Source: a virus (lineage: Duplodnaviria > Caudoviricetes). From it: a DNA stretch of 64,000 nt. Positions 18,876 through 50,496 of this stretch are shown here, piece by piece; positions within the stretch are counted from its first letter, which is position 1, and each line of letters starts with the position of its first letter. The stretch is from IMG/VR virus record IMGVR_UViG_3300037501_000255; one strand, given 5' to 3'. The translations under genes were made by a program, and so were the position numbers. The notes under the pieces were generated by a model. That model saw only the letters and a list, made by a program, of their open reading frames with translations. It was not told the origin of the DNA and made no database searches.

Positions 18876-20321
18876 TCACTGCAGCAGACTTTCGTGAGGC
18901 TGCATTACACGTGCAGATCGAAGCGCTTTAACCTGCTCTTCAGCCAGATCTACAAGATTGAAAATGCGATTTAACTCGGCAGCGCTCACAAGCAGAGCAT
19001 AATTTCCGCCGCTATCCATTTCCACAAATTTCGATATATTAAGGTCCATCGCAGTCTCTGCGGCAGCATCGGGGTCCTGTGCGGCTACGGCCTGCTGTAA
19101 ACGGCCGCGCAGACTGTCAACCATTGCTTTAATACCCTTGTACCAAGCATCATCGATTAATCCGCTAGCAACACCAATAGGCTGATATGCGCGATTAATA
19201 AATAACTGAGCTTGCATAGTCGCGTTTTTGTCAAGAGGCTGGCGTGATGATGTGTCCGCTTCCTCAACCGCATGCTCGGCATCCTGCATCTCCGGGGAAT
19301 CAAATTGATCTGCGTGCTGCCCATCGGATTGCTGGGATAGCCTTGTACCCTGCTCCTGAGCAAATCCCATTAACTTATTATAGCCTTCCATTACATTGGA
19401 CTCATACCACTTAAATGCTGGAAAGAATGCTCCGGCAAGTTTTACATCAATAATCTCATCACGCAATGGCTTGTAATCAGAGAAAGCCTTCTGTAAATCT
19501 TCGGTGGCAGACTGTAATTCCTGCATAGCAGCAGGAGTTTTTTGATTAGCATAAATATCAGATGCAGCTACCCAGCGATTCGTAGAAGCCTGCATGCGCG
19601 AAATAACTTCGCGAAGCTGGTATATGCGTGACTTAAATGCGGCGAAAGCGCTATCATCTTTCCACGAATCTACGTTGCCGGCCAGTTTATCTAGGTCTCG
19701 CGCAAGATTTTCCTGTTGACCTTTAAAACCATACCAGGCAGCTCCTGAAGTGCCTAGGATAGCCCCCAATCCCCACATCACCATGGGAACAGTCCATATC
19801 AAAGCAACCTTGGTGAGATTAGAATTTTTTTTTAAGGCATCTACTATAGAATTGGCCAGGGAGTCAAGTTCCTGTGCAGCAGAACTATCCCCTGTCGCAT
19901 CCAATTCCTGTGCCACAGTCAAAAGATCCTCGGCCAAAGCAGCGTACTTATGACCCACGCTACCAGACGGGTACTTATTGATCATCTCCACTAGCTTCTG
20001 ATGGAGCTCATTCCCATTCTCCACTAGCCCGCCATCCTCCATTGCATCTGCAATGTAAACCGGCTCGGGATGAGCCTCTCCAACCATATCTTTAATTTCT
20101 ACAGAGCGAAGTTTCTCACGTAGAATATCCCGCTCTTTCTTATCTGCAGCTGTAGATACAAAAGCATTTGTTTGCAGCGAAATTTGAGCAACATCTAAAT
20201 CAGGAGTCACATCTGGTAATTCTACAGTGGCGTGCCATAACGGCTCGACGGCAGGTGTCTCAGGTAGCGTACTGAGAATATTCGCATATGTACTCATAAT
20301 TTCATCAAGTTTCGTATTCAT
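18876..20321 (-). CDS. Putative internal head/ejection protein
   Basis: Contains the AHP...GGLVE module, the LLTVAQELDATGDSSAAQELD motif, and a hydrophobic segment directly after TKVA. Confidence 0.5.
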   Translation of the reverse strand: MNTKLDEIMSTYANILSTLPETPAVEPLWHATVELPDVTPDLDVAQISLQTNAFVSTAADKKERDILREKLRSVEIKDMVGEAHPEPVYIADAMEDGGLVENGNELHQKLVEMINKYPSGSVGHKYAALAEDLLTVAQELDATGDSSAAQELDSLANSIVDALKKNSNLTKVALIWTVPMVMWGLGAILGTSGAAWYGFKGQQENLARDLDKLAGNVDSWKDDSAFAAFKSRIYQLREVISRMQASTNRWVAASDIYANQKTPAAMQELQSATEDLQKAFSDYKPLRDEIIDVKLAGAFFPAFKWYESNVMEGYNKLMGFAQEQGTRLSQQSDGQHADQFDSPEMQDAEHAVEEADTSSRQPLDKNATMQAQLFINRAYQPIGVASGLIDDAWYKGIKAMVDSLRGRLQQAVAAQDPDAAAETAMDLNISKFVEMDSGGNYALLVSAAELNRIFNLVDLAEEQVKALRSARVMQPHESLLQ

Positions 20322-20323
20322 AA

Positions 20324-21736
20324 TTAATCACCTAAGATGCTTTTTAACTCAGTATTTATATGCTGACTCATACTACGTGAACGTTTATTAGAAGAGGGGG
20401 TCTTTCCGCGAGCGCGTGGAGAATTGTATTGTGTTGCAGGCGGCGAGGTATACTGAGCACTCGGTGCCGATGGCGCAGTCGCGCGTGATGCGCCGCCACC
20501 CTTCATTGCTTTAAAGCCGGCAAATATTACAGCTGCCAATGCTGCAGCTAAGCCTAGCTTGCCAACTTTACCTTTAAACATGGAGATAAGACCGGCATCA
20601 CCCCCGCGTGCGGCAGCCATAAGGCGAGCCTGTCTCAACTCCTGCTTTTGAAAGTCTGCGCGATGTTTGAGGGTTTGACGATGCTCTGCATTGCGCATAT
20701 CAAGGCGCTTCTTTAATTCTTCACGCTCTGCGCGCGACATATTCTTTTTGGCACGCTCAAGCTCGTCATATGACATCGGGGTGCCTGAGATCGCCGCCAC
20801 CATAAGGCGATGTTGCTCAGGAGTAATCTTACCCATCACCAACTCTCGTTGAAGATCGAATTTTTGCTTCTCTTTCAAATACCTATCTTCAATTTCATAC
20901 TTAGTACGAATCTGATGCTCCATCGATTCGCGATCTCTGAGGAATTTTCCATGCTCCATTTCAGCATGGTGGCGATCCAAGTCTTTCTTCCGCTCATGTG
21001 CAGATGCCGCCTCGGCTTGGTCAATCTCGCGAAGCTTCAGCTGCTGATCGAATGTAAGTCCAGCATATTCGCGCCTACGCAAATGCTTGCGCCGGTCGAA
21101 TTCGTCACGTATCTCCATCTTCGCACGCTCCTGCGCTAGAGGAACTGACTTAGAGGCCGCAGGCGACTCCGTAGGCTTATCCGCAAAAGGCTGCTTTTGC
21201 CTTTGAGTCCATGGAGGTAAAATCTCTCCACCAGGAAGCTCAATGGGCGCTGGTGCCCTAGCCTTTGGTCCGCCAGCAGGTTGGGCAGCTTCAAATTCTA
21301 CCGGTGCAGGAGCTTTTGTTTTGACATTGGTAGTAGGCTGAGCTGCCTCGAAAGTTATTTTACTTTTTGGAGTACCCGCAGGCTGTTTAGCTGGCTCTGC
21401 TGCCAATACCACCCGACCGGACCGCAGAACCTCGGCACGAGCCTCTAGTTCGGGATACATTTCATCTGCCATCTGCCCAGCTAACTCTGACGGGTTTATA
21501 TTCGACAAATCTTTACCAGCCAGCTTCTCATCGAGCATGCGCCCCACATCAGCGAGACCTATGCCCATCATGCCGGCCGCAACATTCAGAATAGCTAGGG
21601 GACCGCTAACAAGCATTAACCCTCGCCCACCCCAGCGTAGGCTGTTTTCGAAAAAGCCCTTCTCATCATCCCATATTAGGTCTTTTATAACCTCGGGAAC
21701 TTCGCCTTGAAAAAAATCAGCCTGCTTTGAGATCAT
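20324..21736 (-). CDS. Putative internal head/ejection protein with two hydrophobic segments
   Basis: N-terminal SKQA motif, two Gly-rich hydrophobic segments, a Pro/Ala linker and a charged coiled coil. Confidence 0.5.
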   Translation of the reverse strand: MISKQADFFQGEVPEVIKDLIWDDEKGFFENSLRWGGRGLMLVSGPLAILNVAAGMMGIGLADVGRMLDEKLAGKDLSNINPSELAGQMADEMYPELEARAEVLRSGRVVLAAEPAKQPAGTPKSKITFEAAQPTTNVKTKAPAPVEFEAAQPAGGPKARAPAPIELPGGEILPPWTQRQKQPFADKPTESPAASKSVPLAQERAKMEIRDEFDRRKHLRRREYAGLTFDQQLKLREIDQAEAASAHERKKDLDRHHAEMEHGKFLRDRESMEHQIRTKYEIEDRYLKEKQKFDLQRELVMGKITPEQHRLMVAAISGTPMSYDELERAKKNMSRAEREELKKRLDMRNAEHRQTLKHRADFQKQELRQARLMAAARGGDAGLISMFKGKVGKLGLAAALAAVIFAGFKAMKGGGASRATAPSAPSAQYTSPPATQYNSPRARGKTPSSNKRSRSMSQHINTELKSILGD

Positions 21737-22656: not shown

Positions 22657-23693
22657 TCACCCCCTGTTACATTTAGCGATACTCCCAATAATCTGGAGTC
22701 GACCTCATTCACTTTAGTTCGGAAAGCATAAAGAATCTGCTTTAATCCGGCAATAACTGGCGCATAGCTAGGGATTTGTGATGCGCGTATACGACCACCG
22801 TCGAGGCGCTCGCGTAGCCCAGGTAAGCGATTGAGATATCCAAGATTTGGTATATCTCTCATAAATTCAGCATGTAGCTTGTTATAATTCTGCGGACTCA
22901 TCTCAGACTTCCACTCTTCAGTGCGAGCATCTAAATCATCGTACTCATCTGCCATAGCTCCGACTTCACGAGCGAATTGCTGGAGTGCCTTGGCTTCTTC
23001 GGGAGTTGCCTGCGGAACTGTCGCGCGCTCGCGACTGGCGCCAGGAGACTCGGTACCACGAGCCCCAAACTGTGCAATACTCTGCAGTTGCTTCCTCAAC
23101 ATTGACGTAGCAACCAAAAGCTTCTTTGCCTCTGTAACCTTATCGCGAGTGATGTAACCCCATAATGAATCTCCGCCGCCCAGGGCCTCTGCTAGATCTG
23201 AGCTGATATCAAAACGTAATAATTTTTGCTCCAGAATGGATGCTTGGGCTGCTGCAGCATCCAATGTATTTGCAGATATTAACTCATCCAGCCTCAACAC
23301 ATCGCCGCGCAGTTCCTCATACAGTTTGCCAGCAGCATGGTTTTCAATATTTTTAGTATCTACCTGAGTGATGATATCTCTCATAATACCTATCAATCTT
23401 AGCACCTCAGAGACATCAGGAGAAGCTGCACCCCCCTGTCCTGCGACAGATATGAGCAGATCTATATCACTTACCGCCGAACGTACGCCTAAGGTATCAA
23501 GATTATTAGCGGCCAATATTAGGCGGCCAACGACAGATGATTTGGTAGCTACATCTAAATGACGTAGATGTGCTTCGTATAAATCTTCCACTAAACCCTC
23601 CCGAGAAGCTTCAGTCACCTGTGTGCCGCCACCAGGATGAGCTAATTGATTCATTTCCTCAGATGTTGGCAGGGGTAGCAAGCCTCTGTGCAT
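22653..23693 (-). CDS. Putative internal head protein (AHP-module family)
   Basis: LAHPGGGTQVTEASREGLVE and LILAANNLDTLGVRSAVSDID. Confidence 0.5.
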   Translation of the reverse strand: MHRGLLPLPTSEEMNQLAHPGGGTQVTEASREGLVEDLYEAHLRHLDVATKSSVVGRLILAANNLDTLGVRSAVSDIDLLISVAGQGGAASPDVSEVLRLIGIMRDIITQVDTKNIENHAAGKLYEELRGDVLRLDELISANTLDAAAAQASILEQKLLRFDISSDLAEALGGGDSLWGYITRDKVTEAKKLLVATSMLRKQLQSIAQFGARGTESPGASRERATVPQATPEEAKALQQFAREVGAMADEYDDLDARTEEWKSEMSPQNYNKLHAEFMRDIPNLGYLNRLPGLRERLDGGRIRASQIPSYAPVIAGLKQILYAFRTKVNEVDSRLLGVSLNVTGGE

Positions 23694-23701
23694 GTATCAC
23701 C

Positions 23702-24706
23702 TCAGAGACTAGGTCCGCGCGGAGGGCCCTTCTGTGGGGTAGTTATACGCGGCCGTTCAACTTGCGGAGTCGGGATTGAGGCTGGTGCGCCCGGCTCATC
23801 GCCACGTCTAGCTACTGGAGATCCTGGTGTAAAAGTAGTTTGTACTGCATTTAATGCAGATGACGCCCGCGCTTCCGCTACGCGCTTCTCAAGATGCGAG
23901 AAAAGTTCGCGCCAAGTCGAATATCCACCGCTTACGCTCCGAGCCATCTCATCCTTCACCTCTTTGGTGATCACGCCCGCCTGCGGAGACGCTGCTAAGG
24001 GTGATAAACCCTCGGCCTCGCGAAGTTGATTAAGTAATGTGATAACGCGGGCATTGTTAGCTTTAAGACGTGCAGCCTTATCGGCCTTCGCCTTCGCTTC
24101 CCGCTCGGCCGCCTTAGCTACGTCATCAAGATAGCCCTGCTCCTGTCCCGGTGCGAGGGGAACGTCTGAAGGAGCTTTCCGCGGAGCAGGCGCCCCCATC
24201 GTCATTCCGTCATACATGCCGTCTACAGGAGTCTGATCCACGTCAGCAGCCAATTTGGCAATTTCAACATCTAACTCGGCAGCGGCAGCGTGCTCACCAC
24301 GCTCATCAAGTAGATTCGCTAGGGAAACTAACTTAGCCATAGCCTGAGCCAGCTTGCCGGTGGGCTTGCCTTCAGCCACATCCCGCATCGCCTTCTGACG
24401 CTCTACAATAGTCTCTACCTTGGCCATATCCTTATCTTTAGGCTTATTATTGTCCAAATCAATGACGGTACCTCCGCCAGGATGGGCTTTACCAACCATC
24501 TCCTCACCAGTCTCGCCACCCAGTCCATATAGGCGATTATCATGGGAAGCTACCGCCACAATGCCATCAAGCTCGTTTTTTGGAGGAGCGCTGATGTCAA
24601 AATCCGGGTATAGATTTTCGGCAGGCTTATCAAGCATACCATCTGCCATGGCCTTAGTATAAAAGGCATCCAAAATTTCACTTTCATCAAATTTGATACG
24701 CTGCAT
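23702..24706 (-). CDS. Putative internal head protein (AHP-module family)
   Basis: VGKAHPGGGTVI...AKVETIVERQK..KPTG and LVSLANLLDERGEHAAAAELD. Confidence 0.5.
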   Translation of the reverse strand: MQRIKFDESEILDAFYTKAMADGMLDKPAENLYPDFDISAPPKNELDGIVAVASHDNRLYGLGGETGEEMVGKAHPGGGTVIDLDNNKPKDKDMAKVETIVERQKAMRDVAEGKPTGKLAQAMAKLVSLANLLDERGEHAAAAELDVEIAKLAADVDQTPVDGMYDGMTMGAPAPRKAPSDVPLAPGQEQGYLDDVAKAAEREAKAKADKAARLKANNARVITLLNQLREAEGLSPLAASPQAGVITKEVKDEMARSVSGGYSTWRELFSHLEKRVAEARASSALNAVQTTFTPGSPVARRGDEPGAPASIPTPQVERPRITTPQKGPPRGPSL

Positions 24707-24714
24707 ATAAGCTC

Positions 24715-25017: not shown

Positions 25018-25024
25018 ATAGTCC

Positions 25025-26180: not shown

Positions 26181-26187
26181 GTTATAT

Positions 26188-29100
26188 TCAGAAGAACAAT
26201 TTAGCTAGATTTTCAACTGATACATCTGCCGTCTGCGGCGCAGCCGGTGTGGCACCAGAACGATCATAGTTCAGCCCAACCACGGGAGCTGCAGTTTTCA
26301 CCTGCTCCTCAGTTTTGCGAGCCTGACCAATCATATTCTTCATGGCATCAAACTGGTCGCCGGGTAGCTTCACCAGGTTAGATGCAAAGCGGTGCAAGTC
26401 CGCGCGTGATTTTGCAATCAAACCACGCTCTTGAGCTTCGAGAGCGAGATTGTATGCACGCATCAACTTCGCCTCCTGCTCCTCGCTTGCTGCTTTGACT
26501 TCGAGCCCTGCCTTGGCCTGCTTGAATTCCTGAGTTAAGCCAGTAGCGAATTCGCGTCCACCATCGACCTGACCCAGGTAATCCTTCCAGTACTTAGCAG
26601 CTACTGCATCAACAGCGCCCTTGGCAACCAACTCGTCTATCTGGGCGGCCTTCACCACGCCAGCGCGAATCATGCGATCCAAGGCTTCAGCCGCCATACG
26701 TACATTGCGCGGTTCGGACTTGGCAACATCCTCGACAGCCTCTTTAACCTCAGCAAGAGTCTCGACCTTATTGAGCTTGTCCGACACCTTAGCATCGACA
26801 GCGACATCTGGGCCTGAACCCTTACGAGCCTCTGAGTAAGTGGACTGCCACTCGCCCGCGATCTTCTTCAGGAGTGATTCCCTCCATGCTTTGCGATCCA
26901 TGAGGCCGTCTTTGGCATGCATATCTTTCTCATGCTCCCTAACTTCCTCATCAGCCTTCTTATCGGCAATCTCGGCAACTTCCTTCTCTTCAGCCTTGTT
27001 GAGCGGCCCAGGCATATCGCCGGCATCTTTTGCCGCCATAGCACCATCTTCCGCATCCCACGCCCTCAGCGCCTCAGCAAGCTCTTCTGCAGCGTCAAGA
27101 CCATCCTCGAGTTCGTCGACGACACTATCTTCCTCTGTGTCGCCATGTCCAAGGAGACTCGGGATTTCAGGCTTGGTAGCCTCCTCCCACTCATCTTCGC
27201 CCTCGGTGAAGGCCTGCGCAACAAGAGCTTCGCGACGCGCTGCGCGAGCGGCTAGGAGAGCAGCTAGAGTTTCCCCAGCCTTCTCTATACCCTTCTCTTC
27301 TTTGTCATCATCCTTCTCTTCTTTGTCATCATCCTTCTCTTCGGACTCATCCTCTTCCCTGTCCTTGCCCTTAGCCTTCTTATCAGACTTGTCCTTCTTA
27401 GACTTCTTATCGTCGTCCCTCTTCTTCTTTTTCTTAGCAGCAAACTTATCTAGAAGATCAGCTGCTGCAGTAGCGACAACAAGCGCATCAGACACCGCCT
27501 CATCAACAACGGTCACCGGAGCAGAAACTGTTGATAGCGCGCCCAGCTCATCGGCAGCCTCAGCAAGCTCGGCCTGTACCTTTAGTAACTGAGTGCGGAA
27601 AGAGGCCGCGACCGGCGCCCCTTCTGCGGCAACATCAACTTGCTTCAGATCTTCGATATTCGCAGCGTTGCGAATTTCCTCAACCGCCGACTCGATAGAA
27701 GCGAGGGCTTCGGCAATCTTGTCCTTGCCAGTATCTCGTGGTGTCGCCGGAGCTTCTGCAGCTGGGGCTTCTGGGGCGGCGGGGGCGGCTGGTGATGCTG
27801 GAAGTTCACCTCCAAGCGTTTCAGCTGCTTTCTCAAGGCCTGCCGAGCGGATGAGTTTCATCACTTCCTTGGCATATGCCTCGGTCTTGAAGAAATCATC
27901 AGCAACAAGATCTTTTCCATCCTGCGAGAGATGTGCCGTATTCTTAACCGGCTCATCTAGTCCCACTTCGTAGGCGGATGATGCACGAACAGTCAGAATT
28001 TCATTGTTACCAGAGAAGAACTTCCAGGCGCTCTGACCCGGGGTTGCGCTCTTGGTGAGTCGCGCACGGATTGAAGCCATGCGCTGGAGGCCGCGCTTGG
28101 TCTGTTCATCACCGGGGAACATGCCGTCAGCGCCACTCTCAACGCTGCCATTCATTTGCTTATCCTTCATACGCATCTTCTCGTGAGGCTCTCCCATAAG
28201 CGGATACTGGGCCTTGCCAGGAGTTGGCTCTTCCGTGCCCTGCCAGTATGCCTTCTTCTCCACGGCACCTTCCTTATCATCAGCCTTCAGGACTTCTTTG
28301 GTACCATCAGCCTTCGTGGCGACCATAACCTTTCTACCGAGGGAGTCGGTCTTTTCCTCGACTGCACCAGGCCTCTTGTCATCGGCAGCCTCTTTCGTCA
28401 GTGCCTTGAGAAGCCGAGCGCGCTTAGCTCGACGCTCTTCAAGGGAGGCGCGTTGCAGCATCTCCTTCTTCTTGGCATCTTCTGCCGGGATATCTTTAGA
28501 TGTATCCAGCTCCTTGCCGGTCATCTGCTTATCTTGAGTGTCGCGAATCTTATCAGCGTCCCCCATCTTTTCGTACGGAAGGGCCTTTGCTGGGTCTTCC
28601 GTGCCCTGGTGATACGCTTGTTTACGCGCCTCTGCGCGCTTACGTAACTCTGCAAAATTCATTGGAATCTCCTTATTCTTCAACATTGCAAATCTATTGT
28701 GCAAAGAATTGTTTTTGGCACCAGCGTCAGAACCATCAGAATAATTTGATGATGTTGCCGATGCCGTTGCTATACCACTATTAGGATCCGGAAGAGTTCG
28801 TGAAACTCCTACGTTCTTGTCTACCATAGAGGTCGGATCTTGCCCGACCTCGCTATTCAAGCTCTCACCGGCCATGTCATGGCCAGTTGCTGCCGCAGAG
28901 CCCATATCGGGCTGAGTGGTCGTACCCGTTGGTCTCACTGCGGAGCTAACATCTATCACAGGAGCTTCTGAAGTCATATACCTTTCAGCCAACAGCTCTG
29001 CAACGGCTTCTTTAACCGATGTAAGTGCAGGATCTTTCATAGACTTCAGCTTTAGTGCAAGCTCCCGTAGCTCGGGATTTTTCATAGACGAAACATGCTG

Positions 29101-30045
29101 CACTACCATAGCATATTTCGGACTTTCATGATTTAGCGTACCCAATAGATCTATGATTTCTGATACGCTAAGATTTTTTCCTGGGACTGATGCGGGCGCA
29201 ACACCCCCTTCATCGCCAGATAAGGCCGCTGCCTTTTGAATGAAGTAATTATTGAAGCTAGCTAACACAGTGCGTACTTTGGCCCGCGGGTCGGCACCTG
29301 TAACAACAAGGCTAAGTTCAATTGGTTTTAGATCCTTATTTATTTCACCATAGTTTGCTTTGGTCTTGACATGGTGACAGTACTCAGCTTCGGTGGTAGC
29401 CACATTTGAGCACTCGGTACAGATCGACCGCCCCACAGCTGTGCCCATCGACACATTGGTCGCATAGCCCGCTTCAACCTTTCGAGCTAGATCTGGATAA
29501 TTTTTTCTATCTAATGCAAATAGCGCGTGGACACGCTTGAATTTAGGATCATAGAAGGTATCTACGATAATACCACGTATTCCATCAACACTATTGCTAA
29601 TATGGTCTTTACACAGCGGCTTTCCAACCCAATCTTTGTGAGATTTAATCAAATCTTCTTCGGGGAAGATGTCGCCATTTTGATTTTTATATAGCTGAAT
29701 ACCGTCTGGGCTAACCCACTTGACTGAGTCTGAGCCACGCGAATCTTTGACTGATTCAAAATGACCCCGCACAGGTTCGCCCCTAGCATTTTTTCTAAAT
29801 TCGCCGCTACCGTCGTCGACAAGATTTGCCTCGGCGGCATGCATCTGAATCGCATGACAATAGAGGAAATCTTCCATCTTAGGAGCGATCTTTGTTCCAA
29901 CCTTAACACGTTCTTGCTCTTCGCGCAAGGAAGAAATGATCTCTTTAAAGCGGCCAACTATTTCCGCCTCCTCGCCAACAGTTTCGGGAGAAACGATATT
30001 AGAAACTTGTAATTGATCGCTGAAGGCAATCTTTTTAATAGCCAT
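26188..30045 (-). CDS. Prohead protease-scaffolding fusion protein (1285 aa)
   Basis: The N-terminal domain NQNGDIF...VGKPLCKDH...GIIVD...VSMG...SICTEC...YCHH...EIN...IELSLVVTGADP is consistent with an HK97/assemblin-fold protease carrying catalytic His/Ser. It is followed by about 1000 aa of Ala/Glu/Lys-rich coiled and low-complexity sequence. It lies between portal and MCP. Confidence 0.78.
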   Translation of the reverse strand: MAIKKIAFSDQLQVSNIVSPETVGEEAEIVGRFKEIISSLREEQERVKVGTKIAPKMEDFLYCHAIQMHAAEANLVDDGSGEFRKNARGEPVRGHFESVKDSRGSDSVKWVSPDGIQLYKNQNGDIFPEEDLIKSHKDWVGKPLCKDHISNSVDGIRGIIVDTFYDPKFKRVHALFALDRKNYPDLARKVEAGYATNVSMGTAVGRSICTECSNVATTEAEYCHHVKTKANYGEINKDLKPIELSLVVTGADPRAKVRTVLASFNNYFIQKAAALSGDEGGVAPASVPGKNLSVSEIIDLLGTLNHESPKYAMVVQHVSSMKNPELRELALKLKSMKDPALTSVKEAVAELLAERYMTSEAPVIDVSSAVRPTGTTTQPDMGSAAATGHDMAGESLNSEVGQDPTSMVDKNVGVSRTLPDPNSGIATASATSSNYSDGSDAGAKNNSLHNRFAMLKNKEIPMNFAELRKRAEARKQAYHQGTEDPAKALPYEKMGDADKIRDTQDKQMTGKELDTSKDIPAEDAKKKEMLQRASLEERRAKRARLLKALTKEAADDKRPGAVEEKTDSLGRKVMVATKADGTKEVLKADDKEGAVEKKAYWQGTEEPTPGKAQYPLMGEPHEKMRMKDKQMNGSVESGADGMFPGDEQTKRGLQRMASIRARLTKSATPGQSAWKFFSGNNEILTVRASSAYEVGLDEPVKNTAHLSQDGKDLVADDFFKTEAYAKEVMKLIRSAGLEKAAETLGGELPASPAAPAAPEAPAAEAPATPRDTGKDKIAEALASIESAVEEIRNAANIEDLKQVDVAAEGAPVAASFRTQLLKVQAELAEAADELGALSTVSAPVTVVDEAVSDALVVATAAADLLDKFAAKKKKKRDDDKKSKKDKSDKKAKGKDREEDESEEKDDDKEEKDDDKEEKGIEKAGETLAALLAARAARREALVAQAFTEGEDEWEEATKPEIPSLLGHGDTEEDSVVDELEDGLDAAEELAEALRAWDAEDGAMAAKDAGDMPGPLNKAEEKEVAEIADKKADEEVREHEKDMHAKDGLMDRKAWRESLLKKIAGEWQSTYSEARKGSGPDVAVDAKVSDKLNKVETLAEVKEAVEDVAKSEPRNVRMAAEALDRMIRAGVVKAAQIDELVAKGAVDAVAAKYWKDYLGQVDGGREFATGLTQEFKQAKAGLEVKAASEEQEAKLMRAYNLALEAQERGLIAKSRADLHRFASNLVKLPGDQFDAMKNMIGQARKTEEQVKTAAPVVGLNYDRSGATPAAPQTADVSVENLAKLFF
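27291..27341 (-). repeat. 21-nt tandem duplication in the scaffold low-complexity region
   Basis: CTTTGTCATCATCCTTCTCTT occurs at 27300-27320 and 27321-27341 plus a partial copy, encoding EEKDDDK x2. Confidence 0.85.
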
Positions 30046-36882: not shown

Positions 36883-37124
36883 ATATTCTCCAAAATATCA
36901 TCGAACTCATCAGCCATTGAAAACTCGCCGACAGAATCCAGAGCAGAGGCTATAGTACGTAGCGAACTAACCATGTCTGCCTTCTTTTGCGCCTTAAATA
37001 TGTGCTGTACTAATCCCCAATCACGATCAGTGAACCTGGACTGCTTCTTGCCCTTATGCTTGCGTACAACACGCTTGGCTTTTTGCCACCTGCTCTCATC
37101 TTTCTTAGATAATTTTCCAGGCAT
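36879..37124 (-). CDS. Small basic protein carrying the head-region helical motif
   Basis: Basic N-half, then QKKA, then LRTIASALDSVGEFSMADEFD. Confidence 0.65.
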   Translation of the reverse strand: MPGKLSKKDESRWQKAKRVVRKHKGKKQSRFTDRDWGLVQHIFKAQKKADMVSSLRTIASALDSVGEFSMADEFDDILENI

Positions 37125-38725: not shown

Positions 38726-40630
38726 TCACGGTGCTGGGCCGGGAGGCGTTGGCGCTCCCGGCATACCACCAGGCGGCTCCGCTGGTGTTGGTGGAGGCGG
38801 CATACCCATGCCTAAATCGCCGCCAGGCATTAGAGGTGGTAGTCCGCCCAATCCAAGGTCACCACCCGGCATCGGAGGTGGGACGCCCGGCAATCCACCC
38901 GGCATACCGCCTGCAAGACCACCAGCCGCACCCCCGGCTGGTTCAGGAATTGGCTCAGTTGGATTAAGACTCTTTAGCTGAGACAGGCTCATCTTAGATA
39001 GATTATCTTGTTCCTTGGCTATAATAGCGGCTTCAATCATCTCCTGCCTAATATTGGCAATTTCATTCTTGCGGCTCAAACCAAGGCTACGATCTAGCGT
39101 TCTAACAGAAACACGATTCTTTTCCACTAGTGTAGAGAGATGTGCGATATAATTATCGAGATCATATAGTGTCATATGATTCCATTCTACTTTGGGTACA
39201 ATCAAGCGCTTCTCTTGACCAACGATATCATAAAATCCTTGTACCTCAGAAATCGGAGCAAAAACCTTCCTCTCTAGCCAATTAGCTATCATAGTCCTAA
39301 ATCCGTTGTAGCGCTGCCTCATGACATCCAGGGCAACGGATGCTGTAGCATACGACGCGCCCTCCTGTGTAAGCAGGGATTTTGGAACCATAAGGCCTGT
39401 AAAGAGGTTATCCATAATCTGATTGATATCTGCGGCAGTATCCAGTATGTGCCCAGAAGCCCCGACTCGGTCAATCGTCACAGCACCGTGTGTGATGATT
39501 TTGAAATCTCTGTCAAATTGCGCCTGCTCCATAATAGCGCGCCAATTATCCAATTCTTCCTGCCGAGGATAGAATCCCTCAGCGCCATCCGTACCGATCT
39601 TAACAAGAGTGATCGGATTAACCATGCTATCTGCCTGAATATACTTACATTCCCTATACTTATCATATAACATTAGGTCTTTCCAGACACTAACTATAAT
39701 AGAGGTGCCACGAACATCATATGGTGAATTTAACATCTTCAAATGACTGATGTTGAAGTTATCCAGCGGAATCATTTCATTTCTAATCACATGATTGATG
39801 ATTTTCGGATCTATTTGATCACGTATGCGCGCATACTCGGGATCCGCATCTGATACAATCTTTTTCAGTTCCGGGTCGGGTCTTAATAAAATAGTAGTGT
39901 TCTTGGGGGAGGTCGGTGACGCTCTGACTGTGATAAAGTCTGGATTGTGCAAATATAACTGATCCCACGAGCCAGTAGACTCATCAAAGGAAGCGTATAC
40001 AAATGCTTCGCCCAACTTCCAGAACTCCAGCGCCGCCTGCTGAACAACGGTCTCGAGGTCAATTTTATCACACATATCCAAAAAGAATCTCTCTACGCGC
40101 TTATCATCGCACCGTATAGATAGCTTGGATATTGGGTATGTAGCATGCAGATTAATTGCATTTCTCACCAGAGGATTTGTCTCGTAATAAGCTCTATTCC
40201 ACGCATTCATTGTGATACGATCGCGGGGAAGCTGCATGTTTTGAGTGAGGAATAGGGGAGAGAATGGCTCTGGACCCACATGCGTGGAGTTTGACACTCC
40301 GCCTATGCGTCCTCCAGAATTCATATTTGTCGATGCAGTCTTATGAAGACCGGAGGCGAGCGCCAAGTTTGGTCTCGGATGCTCTTCTGCGCGAGCATTT
40401 ACCTCCTGTAGATACTCTCGGCGCTCAAGGCTAAGATGCCCAAGGGCGGCGGCTGACTGAGCCTGCCTGTGTAATGTTGTCCGTGAAACATTTTCTACAG
40501 GCAAACCACGCTGCTGCTGGGCTTGACGATAATACATTTGATCTATAACGCTGGTGCGAGGCTCGGCGTCCCCCCAACGTTTAGCCTGCTCTTCAGCTCT
40601 CTTTATAACACTTGGTTCATGCTTTTTCAT
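38726..40630 (-). CDS. Portal protein
   Basis: YYETNPLVRNAINLH...GEAFVY...LHNPD...HLK...PYDVRGTSII...TGLMVPKSLL is a portal-type sequence directly downstream of terL. It has a Pro/Gly-rich C-tail. Confidence 0.82.
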   Translation of the reverse strand: MKKHEPSVIKRAEEQAKRWGDAEPRTSVIDQMYYRQAQQQRGLPVENVSRTTLHRQAQSAAALGHLSLERREYLQEVNARAEEHPRPNLALASGLHKTASTNMNSGGRIGGVSNSTHVGPEPFSPLFLTQNMQLPRDRITMNAWNRAYYETNPLVRNAINLHATYPISKLSIRCDDKRVERFFLDMCDKIDLETVVQQAALEFWKLGEAFVYASFDESTGSWDQLYLHNPDFITVRASPTSPKNTTILLRPDPELKKIVSDADPEYARIRDQIDPKIINHVIRNEMIPLDNFNISHLKMLNSPYDVRGTSIIVSVWKDLMLYDKYRECKYIQADSMVNPITLVKIGTDGAEGFYPRQEELDNWRAIMEQAQFDRDFKIITHGAVTIDRVGASGHILDTAADINQIMDNLFTGLMVPKSLLTQEGASYATASVALDVMRQRYNGFRTMIANWLERKVFAPISEVQGFYDIVGQEKRLIVPKVEWNHMTLYDLDNYIAHLSTLVEKNRVSVRTLDRSLGLSRKNEIANIRQEMIEAAIIAKEQDNLSKMSLSQLKSLNPTEPIPEPAGGAAGGLAGGMPGGLPGVPPPMPGGDLGLGGLPPLMPGGDLGMGMPPPPTPAEPPGGMPGAPTPPGPAP

Positions 40631-40643: not shown

Positions 40644-43556
40644 TTATATTCTCGGCAAATATGCCAACATCGGCACTGGCAAACCGGGACCTTTAGCCTT
40701 GACCTCGCTGCCCTTGAAGCCGCTCGTCGCCAAGAACTTGTATGCAATCAGAGCATATATTGTTGCCATGAGCCCGTCGTTTTGGATAGCACCCTTGACA
40801 TATCTGTTATATACATTATCATTCTTCACGATCTTCTTAACTTCCATCGAGGTAAAATGCTGCATCAACCACTCGATCCTATCGTATGACTCGCCATGTA
40901 CAGGGAAGCGGATTTTGCCATTTCTAACCATAGAGAATATCTCTTCTATCATGGCATCCTTATTTAAAACAACTCGTAATTCTTTTGGCTTATATGATAT
41001 AGTGCTATTCAAGGTGCCGCTGTTTATACATCCTAGAAATCGCTCACCAAAGCCCATCGAGCCCTGCATGTGTTGCACTATGTCTTGGCCGTATCCGATA
41101 TCTGCAGCAGCAACCTGAACCTTGAATAGTCGATACATTTCAGATATGATATTGACCTTGTATTCAAAATCATTGCGCTTTAATCTATAAGCATTTTCTA
41201 TTGTAAATATTCCATTTTTGTCCACACTAACAATTACCACGGCTGTATATGACTGCCCGGCATCAACTCTTCCTCCGCCAGAGTCCTCTTCATCCTCATC
41301 GCCAGCACCGACTAGGTCCTTCCCTCCCCAGTCTATGCCCATCACGACGGTTTTGTCTCCGCGATCAATAATAGTTTTTGCTAATCCACGAGTTCCGTCG
41401 CAGCAGTTTGCGCGAATATCATCTAGCGATATCGTCATGCCGCCACCACTATAGAACTCTCCCAATGTTTCATTTTTCCAGGCCTTCTCACTGCGTTCGC
41501 GATTTACAGACGGATCTAGGTCCAAAATGCTCTCTTTAGTAAACCAAGGATGTAGTAAAACACTTACGTGATAGCCCACATACTGCGTCTCGCCAAGCTT
41601 AGTAGGCATCCAGCGCCCACCCTCGATCGCATCAGCCTTTTTCTGCAACGTACCGCATTCGGGGCAGCGAACATCATGCCCGGATACCCAAATCTTCTTC
41701 CAGGAGTCGCTACCCATAGTGTATAGGAAAAAATAATGGGAGCAGCCAGTACACCGTAGCTGATAAAATCTCTGATCAGATTTTTGCCATAGGTTATAGA
41801 AGTGGGATCCTGTTCCTTTCGGCGTTCCAAAATATACCTGTATACCTTTGGTGGGCCTGCCATACTGTGCAGATGTTAAGATGGGACCCGCCGTCTCGAT
41901 AGCATCCTTTGACATATCCTGGCAATTGTGTGCAATCGGGCCACCGACATTTTTGCTGGTCCGGCTTGGGCAAAGTATGAAGTTATGGTTATCAGCTACG
42001 CCAATATCGTAAACGGCGTCTTCGCCAGCATCATACTGTAATTTGTCAACACATGTGAAAGCGTGCGAAGGACTACTGTTTGACCATGCATACCTATCTG
42101 CCGCCCAGCTGCGATAAAAAGATAGCTTATATTCCATATTATGATGCACATATGGCTGTATTATCTCACAAAGTTTTGAATAATTGGATGAATCCAGATA
42201 TAATGAAAAGTATGAGTAGTACTTTCTATATTCCGCGTTAATTCCAAACCTGGACAGCATCGCAACTAATCGAACCTGCGTATCCTCATCAAATGAGCAC
42301 GTTGAGATGCACGCACATCCCTTATTTACGAAGCCATCATCCATAAACCAGACAGCAAGAGCGCGAGCGTCAGCAGCATCCAACATCCACTGCGGACACG
42401 TACTCTTTGTGCGAGGAATGTATCCTGGTAATACAAAGCACTTTGATGAAAAACGTACTGCTGGCTTCTGAACATAACCATTTTTCTCAATATATGCAAC
42501 GCTACTATTAAACATCGACGCTTTCCATTCTGCGTATTCGCGCTGCTGTATGCCATGTGTTACAGAAAGGCGAAAGCGCCCACTCTTGGGACTCGAGATA
42601 TGGCCATCTCCGAGGAATGAACCAATTGCTATCTGCAGCTGGTCAGAATTCAAAGCGCGCACGCAGAGGTCTGTCCCAGGCGAAGTCATCAGGGCATCAC
42701 CGATACACAGGGACGATGCATCTACCCAGCCACGCTGAGTTAAAAATCTATGATTCGGCGTGCATTTGATCTCTCGATTTCCACAAGTAATTTGCATTAA
42801 TTTTCGGATTCCGCGATTCCAGGCACCATTAATTTGCTTGAACTCAAAAGTACAAGTTGACTCATTATAGCTCTTTACAAGCGGAAGCGGCTCACCGTTC
42901 GCCCACATATCATACAGCTTGCCTATTTTCTCTTTGCCAGAATCAGTCTCTATGTTCTGATCGTAGGGGAAACACTCGTCAAAGAAAATAGCGTCCTGCG
43001 AGAGACCGCGGATTCGGTCGCCATCCGCTCCGGTACCCTCTATACGAAGCTTATTGTATCCCTTAAATGTCTTTTCAGCTATAGCATCCTCCGTTCCTGC
43101 GACTTTAATAGCATTTGCGTCATTTTTTAACATTCTGCTATTTATATAGCCATTCTGCGAGCCTGCTACCATAGGGCCCAATTTATCTTTGGCGTACTTC
43201 GACATTAATCCTAGTGTTGGAAATACATGCAGAACCCTCATCGGAGGTTTGTCTGGTCCAGTGCCAAAGAGCCCTGAGGCTGTGAAGTACAATGATAATA
43301 CAGCCGCAAGAACAGTGGCGCCTATTTGGCGCCCCTTCAAAATCACCATCGGTTTAGCGGTCTTATTAGCCGCCTGAGCTGCCACTTCGCGATACAGGTC
43401 GGCCATAAACTTCCAACCAGTGCCACTCATGCGGAATGGTTTTCCGTCTACAGTCAGATGATTTTCTGCAAATGAAACAGGATCAAGAAGAGATATCTCA
43501 TTCTTGATCTGATTGAAAAGTTTTAGCGTTACTTCTTTGTTGGCTACTACCGTCAT
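40644..43556 (-). CDS. terL: Large terminase subunit with LAGLIDADG intein (620 aa after splicing)
   Basis: KGRQIGAT (Walker A), AIFFDE (Walker B), FGTP coupling motif and nuclease motif VMGIDWG. Confidence 0.92.
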   Translation of the reverse strand: MTVVANKEVTLKLFNQIKNEISLLDPVSFAENHLTVDGKPFRMSGTGWKFMADLYREVAAQAANKTAKPMVILKGRQIGATVLAAVLSLYFTASGLFGTGPDKPPMRVLHVFPTLGLMSKYAKDKLGPMVAGSQNGYINSRMLKNDANAIKVAGTEDAIAEKTFKGYNKLRIEGTGADGDRIRGLSQDAIFFDECFPYDQNIETDSGKEKIGKLYDMWANGEPLPLVKSYNESTCTFEFKQINGAWNRGIRKLMQITCGNREIKCTPNHRFLTQRGWVDASSLCIGDALMTSPGTDLCVRALNSDQLQIAIGSFLGDGHISSPKSGRFRLSVTHGIQQREYAEWKASMFNSSVAYIEKNGYVQKPAVRFSSKCFVLPGYIPRTKSTCPQWMLDAADARALAVWFMDDGFVNKGCACISTCSFDEDTQVRLVAMLSRFGINAEYRKYYSYFSLYLDSSNYSKLCEIIQPYVHHNMEYKLSFYRSWAADRYAWSNSSPSHAFTCVDKLQYDAGEDAVYDIGVADNHNFILCPSRTSKNVGGPIAHNCQDMSKDAIETAGPILTSAQYGRPTKGIQVYFGTPKGTGSHFYNLWQKSDQRFYQLRCTGCSHYFFLYTMGSDSWKKIWVSGHDVRCPECGTLQKKADAIEGGRWMPTKLGETQYVGYHVSVLLHPWFTKESILDLDPSVNRERSEKAWKNETLGEFYSGGGMTISLDDIRANCCDGTRGLAKTIIDRGDKTVVMGIDWGGKDLVGAGDEDEEDSGGGRVDAGQSYTAVVIVSVDKNGIFTIENAYRLKRNDFEYKVNIISEMYRLFKVQVAAADIGYGQDIVQHMQGSMGFGERFLGCINSGTLNSTISYKPKELRVVLNKDAMIEEIFSMVRNGKIRFPVHGESYDRIEWLMQHFTSMEVKKIVKNDNVYNRYVKGAIQNDGLMATIYALIAYKFLATSGFKGSEVKAKGPGLPVPMLAYLPRI
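41925..42974 (-). mobile_element. Intein (350 aa) inserted after the terminase Walker B Glu
   Basis: Begins CFPYDQNI and has block B CTPNH, LAGLIDADG motifs IAIGSFLGDG and LAVWFMDDG, block F VYDIGVADNHNF, and ends AHN followed by +1 Cys (DE|CQDM). Confidence 0.95.
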
Positions 43557-43564
43557 ATATTCTC

Positions 43565-45650: not shown

Positions 45651-46129
45651 TTACCCTCCCCGTTTCCGCAGGCGACTTCTCGGATATATTTTATAAAATC
45701 AACTACCGCAGGCTCCGGCTTGCCGTCTAGAAGCTTAGTCCAATATTCAACATTGGATTTAGATCCGCAGTACGAATCTATGGGCGCAACATAGTTGGCG
45801 CTTTTCCTCTTCTTTTTCTTGCGTTCGACACCCCTCTTCTTGCGAATAAAATCTACGATCGTCCGTATCTTGCCGCTTCGATAATCATCCAAAACCTTAG
45901 GCCATAGCTCTCCGTAGTCATAATTTTTTCTTAATGGCTGAGGAACTTTAGATACGGCAGTATACATTAGAGTTTGTGACGCCATATTGGCGACAATCTC
46001 ATGCTCGGGGCGAGTGCTTAATTCAAGCACCTCATTACCTAGAGCGCACACCTCTGGTAGGTCCAGTGTCTGACCCATGCTGCGCAGAAGTGTCGCGAAT
46101 TTGATTAAAGATGGAACTAAGGTGTTCAT
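45647..46129 (-). CDS. Hypothetical protein
   Basis: Coupled to both neighbours by 4-nt overlaps. Confidence 0.6.
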   Translation of the reverse strand: MNTLVPSLIKFATLLRSMGQTLDLPEVCALGNEVLELSTRPEHEIVANMASQTLMYTAVSKVPQPLRKNYDYGELWPKVLDDYRSGKIRTIVDFIRKKRGVERKKKKRKSANYVAPIDSYCGSKSNVEYWTKLLDGKPEPAVVDFIKYIREVACGNGEGK

Positions 46130-46878: not shown

Positions 46879-46885
46879 TATCTAC

Positions 46886-48454
46886 TCACTCAATGCCAGG
46901 TATATATTTGAGGTTCACAGGCTCATCCTCAAACCCCTCGTCCTCTTGTTGGGAAGGGACTGCTTTTGGCTGCTTCGGCTCAGGTTTCGCCGGAGACTTG
47001 GGTGCCGACTTGCCACTAATGCCCGAGGCCATCTCGCGGACTTCGTCACCCAATTGTTTCTGTTCAGTTGAGACGGGAGCGACCTCTGGCGGGGCTTCGG
47101 AGACAATATCCGGCTGTGTCTGCAGTCCGCCTCGAAGTTTTGGCAGGAGATCCTCAACCTTATTACTGGCATATCCAAATGCATCAATAAGCTTTGACTG
47201 CGCTTCCTGAATTTCAGGAAAGAAGCTGGCCATGCGTAATTTGTGCAACATAAGATCTATCTCTGCCAACGAGCGTACCAGATCGCGATTTTTCAAAACA
47301 GCACTTATATCGGTTAAACGCTTAATTGCCTCATCGAGAGCCACTTCGCGCTGTTCTGGTGGTACGGCCCCAAACTCGCGCTCAACAACCTTGATGGTCC
47401 CAACCTCAGGTATTGGAGGTTCGTCGGCCGCTATGGCAAACAGCTCAGCAGCCCCATCAGAGAAATTGAGCTTTTCAAGTATATTGGCTGTTTTGATGAT
47501 CGAGTCTTTCATAGAGCTAGCTAGACGTAATTTCCTGATACGCTTCCGCAACTCTGAAAGTGCTTCCTCAACAGCGTCAATTTGTTCCTGTTTAATGACT
47601 TTTCTATATTTTTCTAACAGCTTATCTATTGCAAAAACACGGCTCATTAGCTTATTGCGAGCAGTTTCAAAGTCAACCACGTACTGATCATCATATCCCC
47701 TATCAAGAGCAGGAAGCGACATCTCCGGCTCGGGCTGTGGTTCGGGGCGACTGAGTAGCTTGGGAATATAGTAGTATTGCCCATCTGATGCTATCTTATT
47801 TTTCATGGAAACCTCTCTGCGCAAAACACGCTCGCGTGCTCGAATCTGCTCATTAACATCATATTTTGAAAACTCATTTTTCATATGATAGTTAGCCCAC
47901 AATAGGAATTTATATTTCTCAGGCACAGATAGCGATGCGGCTACGCGTTCTAAGGCTGCATCTAACCGAAATCCGGTGCGGACCATATTTTGTATCTGCA
48001 CAAATAATGCCGCCCACTTGCCAATGTCATATGCCGCCTCGGGGGCGACTGGTCGACCACTGTTAGGATGAGCGGATTTCTGCAAGGAGTCGTGCCCATC
48101 AGCCCAATTCCTGGCAGCATTCTTGAAAGATTGTAGGCTTGTTAAATTGAGATCATCTCGATTATCGAAAAGGAACTTCTTAAAATCTGCGCGCTCCTCT
48201 TTTGACAGTGACGTTCCAAGCAAATCCTTGAGCAAATCATCTGCAAATAGATCGATGTAGAAAAAGATTGCAAAATCCTTATCGTTTGAGACGCCGGCCT
48301 CGGTAGCTTCACGATAGTGATCTATGGCACCCTGCCACAGCTCCTCGGTAATGCCAGACTTGACCATGGCTGCAAGTTTTTCAGCGGCGTACTCATTTAT
48401 TAGCCCATATGTGAGCGCCAATTCGATTTCGCTATCAAAATCAACGTCCGCCAC
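46886..48454 (-). CDS. Hypothetical head-region protein
   Basis: 522-aa helical ORF with QKSA and NKIA motifs and the degenerate helical motif IIKTANILEKLNFSDGAAEL. Confidence 0.65.
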   Translation of the reverse strand: MADVDFDSEIELALTYGLINEYAAEKLAAMVKSGITEELWQGAIDHYREATEAGVSNDKDFAIFFYIDLFADDLLKDLLGTSLSKEERADFKKFLFDNRDDLNLTSLQSFKNAARNWADGHDSLQKSAHPNSGRPVAPEAAYDIGKWAALFVQIQNMVRTGFRLDAALERVAASLSVPEKYKFLLWANYHMKNEFSKYDVNEQIRARERVLRREVSMKNKIASDGQYYYIPKLLSRPEPQPEPEMSLPALDRGYDDQYVVDFETARNKLMSRVFAIDKLLEKYRKVIKQEQIDAVEEALSELRKRIRKLRLASSMKDSIIKTANILEKLNFSDGAAELFAIAADEPPIPEVGTIKVVEREFGAVPPEQREVALDEAIKRLTDISAVLKNRDLVRSLAEIDLMLHKLRMASFFPEIQEAQSKLIDAFGYASNKVEDLLPKLRGGLQTQPDIVSEAPPEVAPVSTEQKQLGDEVREMASGISGKSAPKSPAKPEPKQPKAVPSQQEDEGFEDEPVNLKYIPGIE

Positions 48455-49154: not shown

Positions 49155-49163
49155 ATTTGCTCC

Positions 49164-49206
49164 AAAAAATAAGAGGGGCGCTGCCTATATGTACAGCCCG
49201 CCCCTC
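49164..49206 (-). terminator. Rho-independent terminator
   Basis: GAGGGGCG/CGCCCCTC stem (49173-49180/49199-49206) followed by TTATTTTTT on the minus strand. Confidence 0.7.
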
Positions 49207-49224
49207 ATAAACATCGAAGATGTC

Positions 49225-50496
49225 TCACTTTCTCCTAGACAATGCTCCGGCACCCTCGAAAATGCGTGAAGGCGGCGCATACTGGGAGAAGGTAGGCGTC
49301 TGGTGCTTAATACTGCCGCCTGCACGCGGAGTGCCGCTAGCATCAGTGAAGCCATGCTGAAAATCGTACACTTTATTGGTGACGACATCCTGGTATACAC
49401 CATCTGATATGCGCTTCATCATCACGCCGGGCATATCAGGCGAGTAGCGAGTCTGAGACACTGCGGTGCCCTGATGAGTTTGTAGATGATGATTCTCGCG
49501 ATTCTCTTCCACTTCACGCTTGGTCTTTTCATGCATTGTTTCTTCATTATGTGCTTTGAAATCGTACAAATCTTTGCGCGTCACATTTAGTGATGGGTAC
49601 TGATCTGCTGCGGCGACAATAACCCGCTCTACGATATCAGCAGCCTCTGTATAGCCTTCAGCATCTAACTTGTCGGCTACCTTCACCATATCAGATAGCA
49701 ACTCTGCGCGACTGCCTAGACCCATCCAACGCTTGAGTTTTTCATCCCAGGTCTCAGCATGTGTGCCGGAAGCCCGCGGCGGCTCAGCGCGAGTTCCCTT
49801 GGGAGCATATTTGCTAGGTGGCTGTGGAGGATTTTGCATAAGCTCACCTACACCTTCAGGAGAAAGAACTTTAACGGTCGGCTGTTTGCGTGTTAAATCG
49901 GGGCCAGCCGGGGCTGGAGCTGGTAGTGCCGGCGGTACAAGACCCCCTGCAACGTCACCCTGCATTAGTGCCTCAGTAGCCGATGTATCTTCAACCACTT
50001 CTTGTGGTTTGTTAGCAAGAGGAGGAATTCCTTCGACTGGAGCAGGGATTTCGCGTCCATAGGACTGTTGCCGACGCTCGCGCTCGGCTTCCTCGACAAT
50101 GTCTGCCCATGATTGCTCTGCAGCAGCAGGTGCTGCTTCACCAGGCATTTCTACAGGAGTAGTTTCTCCGGGAGGTTCAGCTGGGATAAGCGGATTCTCG
50201 CCGCGCCCGCGCTGCTTTTCAAGCCCTGCAAGCTGACGTGTTAATTGAGCGTGGCCATCCTTAAGCTGTAGAAGGCGCCATTTTAGACCGCGCGGAATCT
50301 TCCCACTGTCCAGAGTTGCATCCAAAAAATCCTTTAGTTTCGCATTAAATTCCGCAACTTCTTCGGGCGTCATTACTGTGACGCGACGTGCTGCATGAGC
50401 CTGCAGGACGCCCTCAAGCGCAGCAGCGGCCTGTTTGGCCGCAGGACTCTCAACATTATTCAAAATGCTCGCAGTCTTAGATAAAAAATCAAGCAT
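49225..50496 (-). CDS. Hypothetical head-region protein
   Basis: SKTA at the N-terminus, MVKVADKLDAEGYTEAADIVE motif, and Pro/Ala-rich middle. Confidence 0.65.
   Translation of the reverse strand: MLDFLSKTASILNNVESPAAKQAAAALEGVLQAHAARRVTVMTPEEVAEFNAKLKDFLDATLDSGKIPRGLKWRLLQLKDGHAQLTRQLAGLEKQRGRGENPLIPAEPPGETTPVEMPGEAAPAAAEQSWADIVEEAERERRQQSYGREIPAPVEGIPPLANKPQEVVEDTSATEALMQGDVAGGLVPPALPAPAPAGPDLTRKQPTVKVLSPEGVGELMQNPPQPPSKYAPKGTRAEPPRASGTHAETWDEKLKRWMGLGSRAELLSDMVKVADKLDAEGYTEAADIVERVIVAAADQYPSLNVTRKDLYDFKAHNEETMHEKTKREVEENRENHHLQTHQGTAVSQTRYSPDMPGVMMKRISDGVYQDVVTNKVYDFQHGFTDASGTPRAGGSIKHQTPTFSQYAPPSRIFEGAGALSRRK

Follow-up and report, generated by a model that had tools for sequence, protein, structure and literature searches.

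The 64,000-nt window analyzed here, from IMG/VR virus record IMGVR_UViG_3300037501_000255 (Duplodnaviria; Caudoviricetes), encodes several proteins that share a hairpin tag: an acidic helix-turn-helix peptide of about 30 residues, carried by many unrelated proteins in this jumbo phage, an uncultured one from freshwater, and in related phages. The tag family is real, with five copies in the genome scoring 22–45 bits against at most 2.3 bits for open reading frames (ORFs) that are not carriers. The tag, predicted to fold as an acidic alpha-hairpin, is portable: in one uncultured lineage of mostly jumbo phages it has multiplied greatly and been joined to well over 100 unrelated payloads. It probably serves as a docking tag for a putative protein partner. 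The sequence family was absent from every domain, structure, and literature collection searched; tags shared by phage proteins are in themselves already known.

Sequence and scores of the tag

The consensus of 407 instances is M-[LI]-x-x-L-[IV]-K-[LIV]-A-[ND]-x-L-D-x-x-G-x-x-x-x-A-D-x-[ILV]-D-x-[ILV]-[ILV]-K-K, in which L-[IV]-K-[LIV]-A-[ND]-x-L-D makes up the first helix, x-x-G the turn, and x-x-x-x-A-D-x-[ILV]-D-x-[ILV]-[ILV]-K-K the second helix. The A, L, D, G, A, and D columns are 89–100% conserved over this set, and the near-invariant positions are D (97%), D (94%), N/D (85%), G (94%), and A (97%). The hairpin has a mean net charge of about −1.6 and a median isoelectric point (pI) of 4.9.

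Copies were scored with an independent profile built from 133 outside instances, from which the window's own proteins and their close orthologues were left out; the scan covered 927 ORFs in the 142 kb that was searched of the phage record to which the window belongs (G000). The window sequence itself could be traced to one sequencing run only, of freshwater metagenome DNA. Four window copies stand out at 22–38 bits (individual scores in Table 1), and a sixth, previously unlisted copy elsewhere in the record has the strongest score of all, 44.7 bits; the highest non-carrier ORF reaches 2.3 bits. The copy in a 346-aa protein is marginal with this profile (8.2 bits; independent E-value 0.09). A profile made from the window's five copies recovers all five plus the sixth, with everything else at 2.6 bits or below, while leave-one-out profiles from the window copies give 15.0, 12.2, 6.2, 6.0, and 0.5 bits. 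In 100 shuffled proteomes the best score had a mean of 2.9 and a maximum of 9.4 bits; taking the leave-one-out and shuffling results together, three copies are strong, two moderate, and one weak.

An initial annotation of the window had listed eight copies, five of them “clear” and three “degenerate,” on head-region proteins. All eight strings are indeed present in minus-strand ORFs at the coordinates it gave, although these mark the low end of each ORF and not the position of the motif: the five clear strings lie at aa 133 of 481, 58 of 346, 126 of 334, 55 of 81, and 270 of 423. Four of these five are confirmed by the scores above, the 346-aa copy being the doubtful one, but the degenerate copies find no support (the ORF at 46886 scores −0.2 bits, and those at 24715 and 45647 are at or below zero). 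The statement that no copy occurs in the replication or fiber modules is true across the 142 kb, though it overlooked the sixth copy. Profile scans of genome and databases, which the annotation had suggested, show the tag family to be widespread.

That amphipathic helices rich in alanine and leucine resemble each other by chance or composition, without shared ancestry, is an obvious concern with a motif of this kind, and the 346-aa copy and the three degenerate ones do score at noise level. As an account of the family it has next to no plausibility: an outside profile separates four window copies from all other ORFs by the scores just given, shuffled proteomes never exceed 9.4 bits, and the same invariant columns recur in hundreds of outside instances. 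A chance origin is refuted for the sixth copy and for the four strong ones in the window.

Predicted fold and structural neighbors

An AlphaFold2 model of the C-terminal 169 aa of the 423-aa carrier, made with 27 homologues, has a helix at residues 4–26, a turn, and a helix at residues 29–45, with a predicted local distance difference test (pLDDT) score of 93–96; a small beta domain follows. A tandem pair of hairpins from an outside family is predicted to form a compact four-helix unit (mean pLDDT 93; predicted template modeling score, pTM, 0.77). Since one hairpin would be too small for stability alone, a lone-hairpin carrier would need a partner, and the invariant N/D, D, D, and D positions suggest a specific interface.

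The single hairpin superposes on Rop with a template modeling (TM) score, by target, of 0.65–0.67, which is below significance. For the tandem unit the best Foldseek matches, weak in score, are pairs of tetratricopeptide repeats (TPRs; E 0.3–1, TM 0.43–0.54, probability up to 0.95), and VIA-align matches it to unrelated helical proteins at Z ≤6.7. A fold search with the 423-aa C-terminal model against PDB, BFVD, AFDB clusters, and Atlas returned uncharacterized proteins and zinc-ribbon-like entries only. In sequence, the spacing small-x2-L-x3-G-x4-A fits positions 8, 11, 15, and 20 of the TPR consensus; however, tag copies come mostly as one or two, not as solenoid arrays of at least three, and the conserved acidic positions are un-TPR-like. 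No Pfam TPR family was matched at E≤1 by ten hairpin segments, nor at E≤1e-3 among 149 carriers. Spacing alone, judged against general consensus patterns, was the ground for rejecting EF-hand and dockerin readings.

Distribution and portability

A profile of nine copies had 157 matches at E≤1e-3 among 1.84 billion representative proteins or clusters. With the motif masked, 149 outside proteins fall into 83 unrelated payload clusters. A degenerate DNA pattern scan of IMG/VR found 115 loci, against about four expected by chance (an information-content estimate), and in 105 of them carriers were verified by profile; the 198 unique carriers from this search form 138 payload clusters, again with the motif masked. 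The carriers had been described as otherwise different in sequence, which is true only in part, the 334-, 346-, and 481-aa proteins of the window being paralogues of one another.

Among the 149 outside proteins the tag begins within the first 12 residues in 81 and stands at the C-terminus in 30; 63 have one copy, 82 (55%) have two, and 3 have three. IMG/VR carriers have it N-terminally in 61% and C-terminally in 15% of cases, and the N-terminal figure in relatives is 61–77%. Several loci contain arrays of 6–12 consecutive genes, each tag-initial and with unrelated payloads, and a genome search of five related records found 11–21 tag copies in each. Hairpins within a contig are slightly more alike (45%) than those from different contigs (39%), a difference reached in 0 of 2000 permutations. 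The earlier description of the motif as a portable helix-turn-helix is thus borne out by the predicted hairpin, by the 83 and 138 payload clusters, and by the arrays.

Described families contain nothing comparable in the searches made. No Pfam model lies over the hairpin, and no family is common to more than 2–4 of the 149 carriers, the matches in question being in payloads; NCBIfam gave noise only, with no hairpin model, and PHROGs gave nothing for the eight window ORFs of the initial annotation. A profile search of PDB sequences had one 12-residue chance match. In GenBank phages, two consensus-like carriers compared by tblastn with 50,697 phage records returned nothing relevant, and megablast of 20 kb of the window had no match; Bacillus phage G, whose portal makes it the nearest named relative, yielded no tag candidate in a profile search. 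A literature string search for the motif cores returned unrelated words only, and an ESM Atlas feature search gave no usable match.

Carriers and their neighbors in the window

Nearly all window genes are on the minus strand. In order of transcription they begin with a 514-aa ORF, the 423-aa carrier, ORFs of 237 and 522 aa, a PolyA_pol-like gene, and four further ORFs; then come an intein-interrupted large terminase (TerL), the portal, a 107-aa ORF, a TopoIB-M23 fusion, the 81-aa carrier, a 1612-aa ORF, and four ORFs; then a 1285-aa protease-like protein, ORFs of 113, 228, and 100 aa, and the 334- and 346-aa carriers; and finally ORFs of 307 and 470 aa, the 481-aa carrier, a 237-aa ORF, and a capsid gene in pieces. 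The 334-, 346-, and 481-aa carriers thus sit between the 1285-aa protease-like gene and the capsid gene. Coordinates are collected in Table 1.

Table 1. Hairpin copies, associated boxes, and context genes; positions are those of the window except where G000 is given, and bit scores are from the independent profile.
Feature	Coordinates	Strand	Remarks
Hairpin of 423-aa carrier (ORF 49225–50496), aa 267–297	49606..49698	−	LSDMVKVADKLDAEGYTEAADIVERVIVAAA; 37.5 bits
Hairpin forming C-terminus of 81-aa carrier (ORF 36879–37124), aa 51–81	36882..36974	−	33.4 bits
Hairpin in 334-aa carrier (ORF 23702–24706), aa 123–153	24248..24340	−	33.9 bits
Weak hairpin in 346-aa carrier (ORF 22653–23693), aa 55–84	23442..23531	−	8.2 bits; leave-one-out 0.5
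Hairpin in 481-aa carrier (ORF 18876–20321), aa 130–159	19845..19934	−	22.4 bits
Sixth carrier, 147-aa ORF	G000 133552–133995	+	44.7 bits; ~82 kb away; adjoins 535-aa gene
AHPGGG box directly upstream of hairpin, 334-aa carrier aa 57–117	24356..24538	−	LYxxxGETGE.....AHPGGG..T....VETIVE
Weaker AHPGGG boxes	23532–23666 (346-aa), 19935–20090 (481-aa)	−	Same conserved segment
522-aa ORF, listed earlier as degenerate carrier	46886..48454	−	−0.2 bits, unsupported
ORFs listed earlier as degenerate carriers	24715–25017, 45647–46129	−	Unsupported; not among scored matches
Portal (context)	38726..40630	−	phrog_16240, 5.6e-45; 32% identical to Bacillus phage G portal
Large terminase with LAGLIDADG intein (context)	40644..43556	−	phrog_675, 2.7e-54; Pfam LAGLIDADG_2 and Intein_splicing
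1285-aa protein, N-terminal part head-maturation-protease-like (context)	26188..30045	−	phrog_2774 and phrog_18299 at aa 121–229
Major capsid gene in pieces (context)	14817..17860; N part 17558–17860, C part 14817–15164	−	BLASTP to L007 major head protein (phrog_2522), 62% and 71% identity

The hairpin of the 423-aa carrier is preceded by a Pro/Ala-rich stretch and followed by a conserved C-terminal zinc-ribbon-like domain; this domain is common to 32 outside proteins, the largest payload cluster. The family motif RYCPDHxG...YQCPxDG reads RYSPDMPG...YQDVVT in the window copy (49228–49560), so that, with the motif cysteines absent, its metal ligands appear to be lost. The 81-aa carrier consists of a very basic N-terminal 50 aa (pI 10.9) and the acidic hairpin (pI 4.05). 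It has four orthologues with 64–75% identity in the same place, between the TopoIB-M23 gene and a gene of about 1615 aa, and the protein is also encoded on a 367,953-bp contig. The TopoIB and M23 peptidase fusion by the portal (37126–38427) is kept in a related 125-kb contig (L001, L002), invariably with the 81-aa hairpin protein after it.

The 481-aa carrier has a hydrophobic transmembrane-like stretch after its hairpin, at about aa 171–190 in a hydropathy scan, and a 406-aa homologue in a related contig, L007. The positional counterpart of the 334-aa carrier in that contig is a 1147-aa protein, P0018. The weak hairpin of the 346-aa carrier is accepted chiefly on the strength of paralogy between this carrier and the 334-aa one: the two align over about 276 aa (BLASTP 4.8e-7), as weak paralogues, and the 481-aa carrier has about 80 aa upstream of the motif in common with the 334-aa one. 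All three have an N-terminal domain of ~85–160 aa, made up of a conserved segment, called here the AHPGGG box, and the hairpin, followed by differing C-terminal parts. This segment of about 60 aa is, in the 334-aa carrier, 40–50% identical to segments of ten outside proteins of 423–1266 aa, the second-largest payload cluster, in which the box stands between two hairpin copies. The large outside relatives are encoded next to capsid genes, and some have endolysin-like domains. The AHPGGG segment is possibly a further element for docking or processing, specific to the head. The idea that the large carriers are scaffold homologues was rejected, as P0018 has no similarity to the 1285-aa protease-scaffold.

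Several neighboring genes have features of their own. TerL is uninterrupted (589–620 aa) in related loci, unlike the intein-bearing window copy. Homologues of the 1285-aa protein are found in four related records and loci (G002, G003, G005, and L082). Both capsid pieces, between which there are ORFs of 271 and 286 aa, can be matched to a 342-aa capsid protein that is intact in a related contig. A single 211-aa protein, again from a related contig, is matched both by the 237-aa protein encoded immediately upstream of the capsid gene (18104–18817) and by the N-terminus of a 723-aa protein (1321–3492), suggesting that the two have a domain in common, perhaps of a decoration or scaffold protein. 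Outside the window, the 535-aa gene beside the sixth carrier bears an unconfirmed Ro60/TROVE label.

Genomic context

Some carriers are conserved members of the head and packaging module, as the initial annotation had proposed and as synteny in related loci indicates. The head module always holds two or three carriers (up to five in one record). The place of the 423-aa family, upstream of PolyA_pol and TerL, is fixed in L005 and about 24 IMG/VR loci; the short PolyA_pol-like nucleotidyltransferase (46126–46878) is itself a fixed member of this pre-terminase block, in about 24 related loci. In L055 a six-gene tag array abuts TerL and portal, and in L082 a seven-gene array abuts the protease-scaffold. 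The P0018 and P0098 carriers are encoded 3–6 genes from the capsid gene, some with endolysin-like domains, which are known from ejection proteins.

Elsewhere the neighborhood differs. In 55 of the 105 IMG/VR loci there is no homologue of any window head-module gene, and the neighbors include GroEL, PhoH, endolysins, nucleases, and RNR. One recurrent block has the order GroEL, four small or medium ORFs, sometimes an ORF of about 1100 aa, two hairpin proteins, and an ORF of 700–730 aa; PHROGs made no structural calls in it, and only GroEL was named. Just upstream of the head and packaging block of L005 (1–4546) are genes for RuvC, DnaJ, RecA, a primase fragment, a sigma-like protein, and IF3. 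Inspection by eye of the upstream regions of 32 carrier genes found no common promoter-like motif. Genes for T4 internal proteins are also found away from the head genes, and for this reason gene position alone is indecisive.

Possible functions

The reading that we favor, and consider probable, is that the hairpin is a shared protein-docking tag. It would act as a portable protein-protein docking module in this one uncultured, mostly jumbo-phage lineage, each hairpin being predicted to pack against a second hairpin or an equivalent helix pair; a single-copy carrier could find its partner in a common receptor or in the hairpin of some other carrier. In the phage described here at least five or six carriers would in this way bring unrelated payloads to one shared assembly: the product of the pre-terminase gene, the small basic protein encoded after the portal and the TopoIB-M23 fusion, the three protease-to-capsid paralogues, and the small 147-aa protein. 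The most concrete, if speculative, candidate for their destination is the prohead interior or scaffold core, in which case the head-module carriers would be internal head proteins.

A number of observations weigh against this. In related records, most matches in the genome search fall outside the head module, which holds 3 of 11 in G005 (372 kb, complete; a more permissive ORF-level scan of its head region finds five carriers), 2 of 15 in G002 (317 kb, 94% complete), and 2 of 11 in G003 (233 kb, 68% complete). The remaining copies form arrays amid small accessory ORFs about 100 kb off, and the tag is not confined to head regions. The sixth copy in this genome adjoins the putative Ro60 gene. 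In L009 (10001–12229) a full CCA-adding enzyme (PolyA_pol plus HD) has two hairpins and is encoded beside a 2′,5′ RNA ligase-like gene, and the GroEL-linked block, with its two carriers, is present in six loci (L018, L058, L078, L109, L110, and L121). Payloads are acidic, with a median pI of 5.2 compared to 6.3 in neighboring ORFs; the possibility that they are basic DNA-binding internal proteins was rejected on these figures. No conserved cleavage motif follows the tag: conservation stops past K-K-x-A, and positions resembling the KxA site with which the initial annotation had coupled the tag occur in only 32–35% of the 407 instances. The greater likeness of hairpins within a contig could stem from recent duplication alone, and the searches of GenBank phages and phage G found no carrier in a cultured phage.

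The functional alternatives overlap, each was rated for plausibility separately, and the ratings do not add up to one; docking includes capsid targeting and self-association as special cases. Capsid targeting, which the initial annotation had proposed, would make the hairpin an address by which cargo docks on the scaffold, protease core, or shell interior, to be packaged and later ejected, with the prohead protease perhaps removing the tag. Carriers do occupy classical core and scaffold places (from protease-scaffold to major capsid gene, after the portal, and upstream of TerL); tag arrays of related phages abut TerL and portal or the protease-scaffold; large carriers by the major capsid genes have endolysin-like domains; the 481-aa carrier has its transmembrane-like helix after the tag; the 81-aa carrier amounts to a basic peptide plus tag; and there are precedents in the T4 capsid targeting sequence (CTS) and the SPN3US propeptides (PMC5694885). 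Set against these are head-module counts in the three records that come near chance expectation once the conserved members are put aside, tags that in the window are internal or C-terminal and not N-terminal, the acidity of the payloads, and the RNA-repair, Ro60-adjacent, or GroEL-linked contexts of some carriers. Capsid loading keeps its appeal for the head-module carriers but is put forward as a possibility of a doubtful kind, since neither a cleavage signature nor position across the genome supports it. A larger proposal, that of an undescribed cargo-loading system with the hairpin as its address, is more tentative still. By it, 10–20 unrelated proteins per phage, most of them small accessory proteins whose genes are remote from the head genes and the others head-module carriers, would be docked on a prohead-core receptor, packaged, and delivered with the DNA. 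If it is true, these phages would possess a modular arsenal of injected effectors, like the T4 internal proteins but with a folded, exchangeable tag.

Self-association would dispense with a dedicated receptor and with any link to the capsid: hairpins would pair or stack in a Rop-like or TPR-like manner into homo- or hetero-oligomers, possibly a network. It would explain why carriers are scattered over all genome regions, and it is in keeping with the high-confidence packing predicted for tandem copies, with the two copies in 55% of outside proteins, and with the superpositions on Rop (TM 0.65–0.67) and TPRs (TM about 0.5). We nevertheless think it unlikely. The structural matches fall short of significance (E 0.3–6, Z under 7) and are of the sort that helical hairpins give in general, the invariant acidic positions point to a particular and perhaps basic partner more than to hydrophobic self-packing, and it gives no reason for 11–21 unrelated proteins to oligomerize. 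A host- or chaperone-directed tag, by which small accessory and possibly early proteins would be sent to a chaperonin or to another host or phage hub, seems quite improbable. Carriers in relatives are mostly small ORFs in accessory-gene regions, as it would have them, and the conserved GroEL-linked block and the DnaJ, IF3, and RecA genes near a carrier in the lineage point the same way; but GroEL is 4–6 genes from the carriers, the linkage is confined to one sub-block, and head-module carriers in morphogenesis operons fit poorly with an early role directed at the host.

The putative docking tag, whatever its destination, groups many otherwise unannotatable ORFans into one functional class, with up to 21 copies per genome, in a lineage of abundant uncultured jumbo phages from freshwater and other environments. 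It is also a testable handle on a route for packaging head cargo in jumbo phages, or on another hub.

Comparison with known systems

Paralogous head proteins of phage SPN3US carry propeptides of 100–130 aa (PMC5694885). The 334-, 346-, and 481-aa paralogues resemble these and other phiKZ-like propeptides in having a common N-terminal domain and in being encoded between protease and capsid gene. There is however no detectable homology, and the hairpin is also found alone on many small proteins from outside the head module.

The CTS of T4 (on IPI–III and Alt) is, like the tag, a short peptide common to unrelated proteins; the tag in relatives is usually N-terminal, and there are several tagged genes per genome, some of them arrayed. 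The CTS differs in being 10–20 aa long, with no hairpin, and in being cut by gp21 at L/I-x-E, whereas the tag is a 30-aa helix-turn-helix without a conserved cleavage motif. The window tags, moreover, stand at aa 51–297 or at the C-terminus, the two peptides have no sequence similarity, and packaging here is hypothetical; T4 internal proteins are basic, and tag payloads acidic. Shared tags on unrelated proteins are how the T4 internal and ejected proteins were first recognized, and such tags have been reused to load foreign proteins into capsids.

The encapsulation peptides of bacterial microcompartments and the cargo-loading peptides of encapsulins are likewise short terminal tags, sometimes at either end, common to the unrelated cargo enzymes of a single compartment, and encapsulin shells have the HK97 fold of phage capsids. 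These peptides are a single amphipathic helix or an extended stretch, with other sequences, and a shell partner for the tag is hypothetical. The C-terminal helix-turn-helix of the P22 scaffolding protein is sufficient to dock fused cargo inside the procapsid. It is basic and C-terminal, while the tag is acidic and mostly N-terminal and has no sequence match in PDB; as a small helix-turn-helix, which is also what AlphaFold2 predicts for the tag, it is the closest working analogue of the mechanism proposed here.

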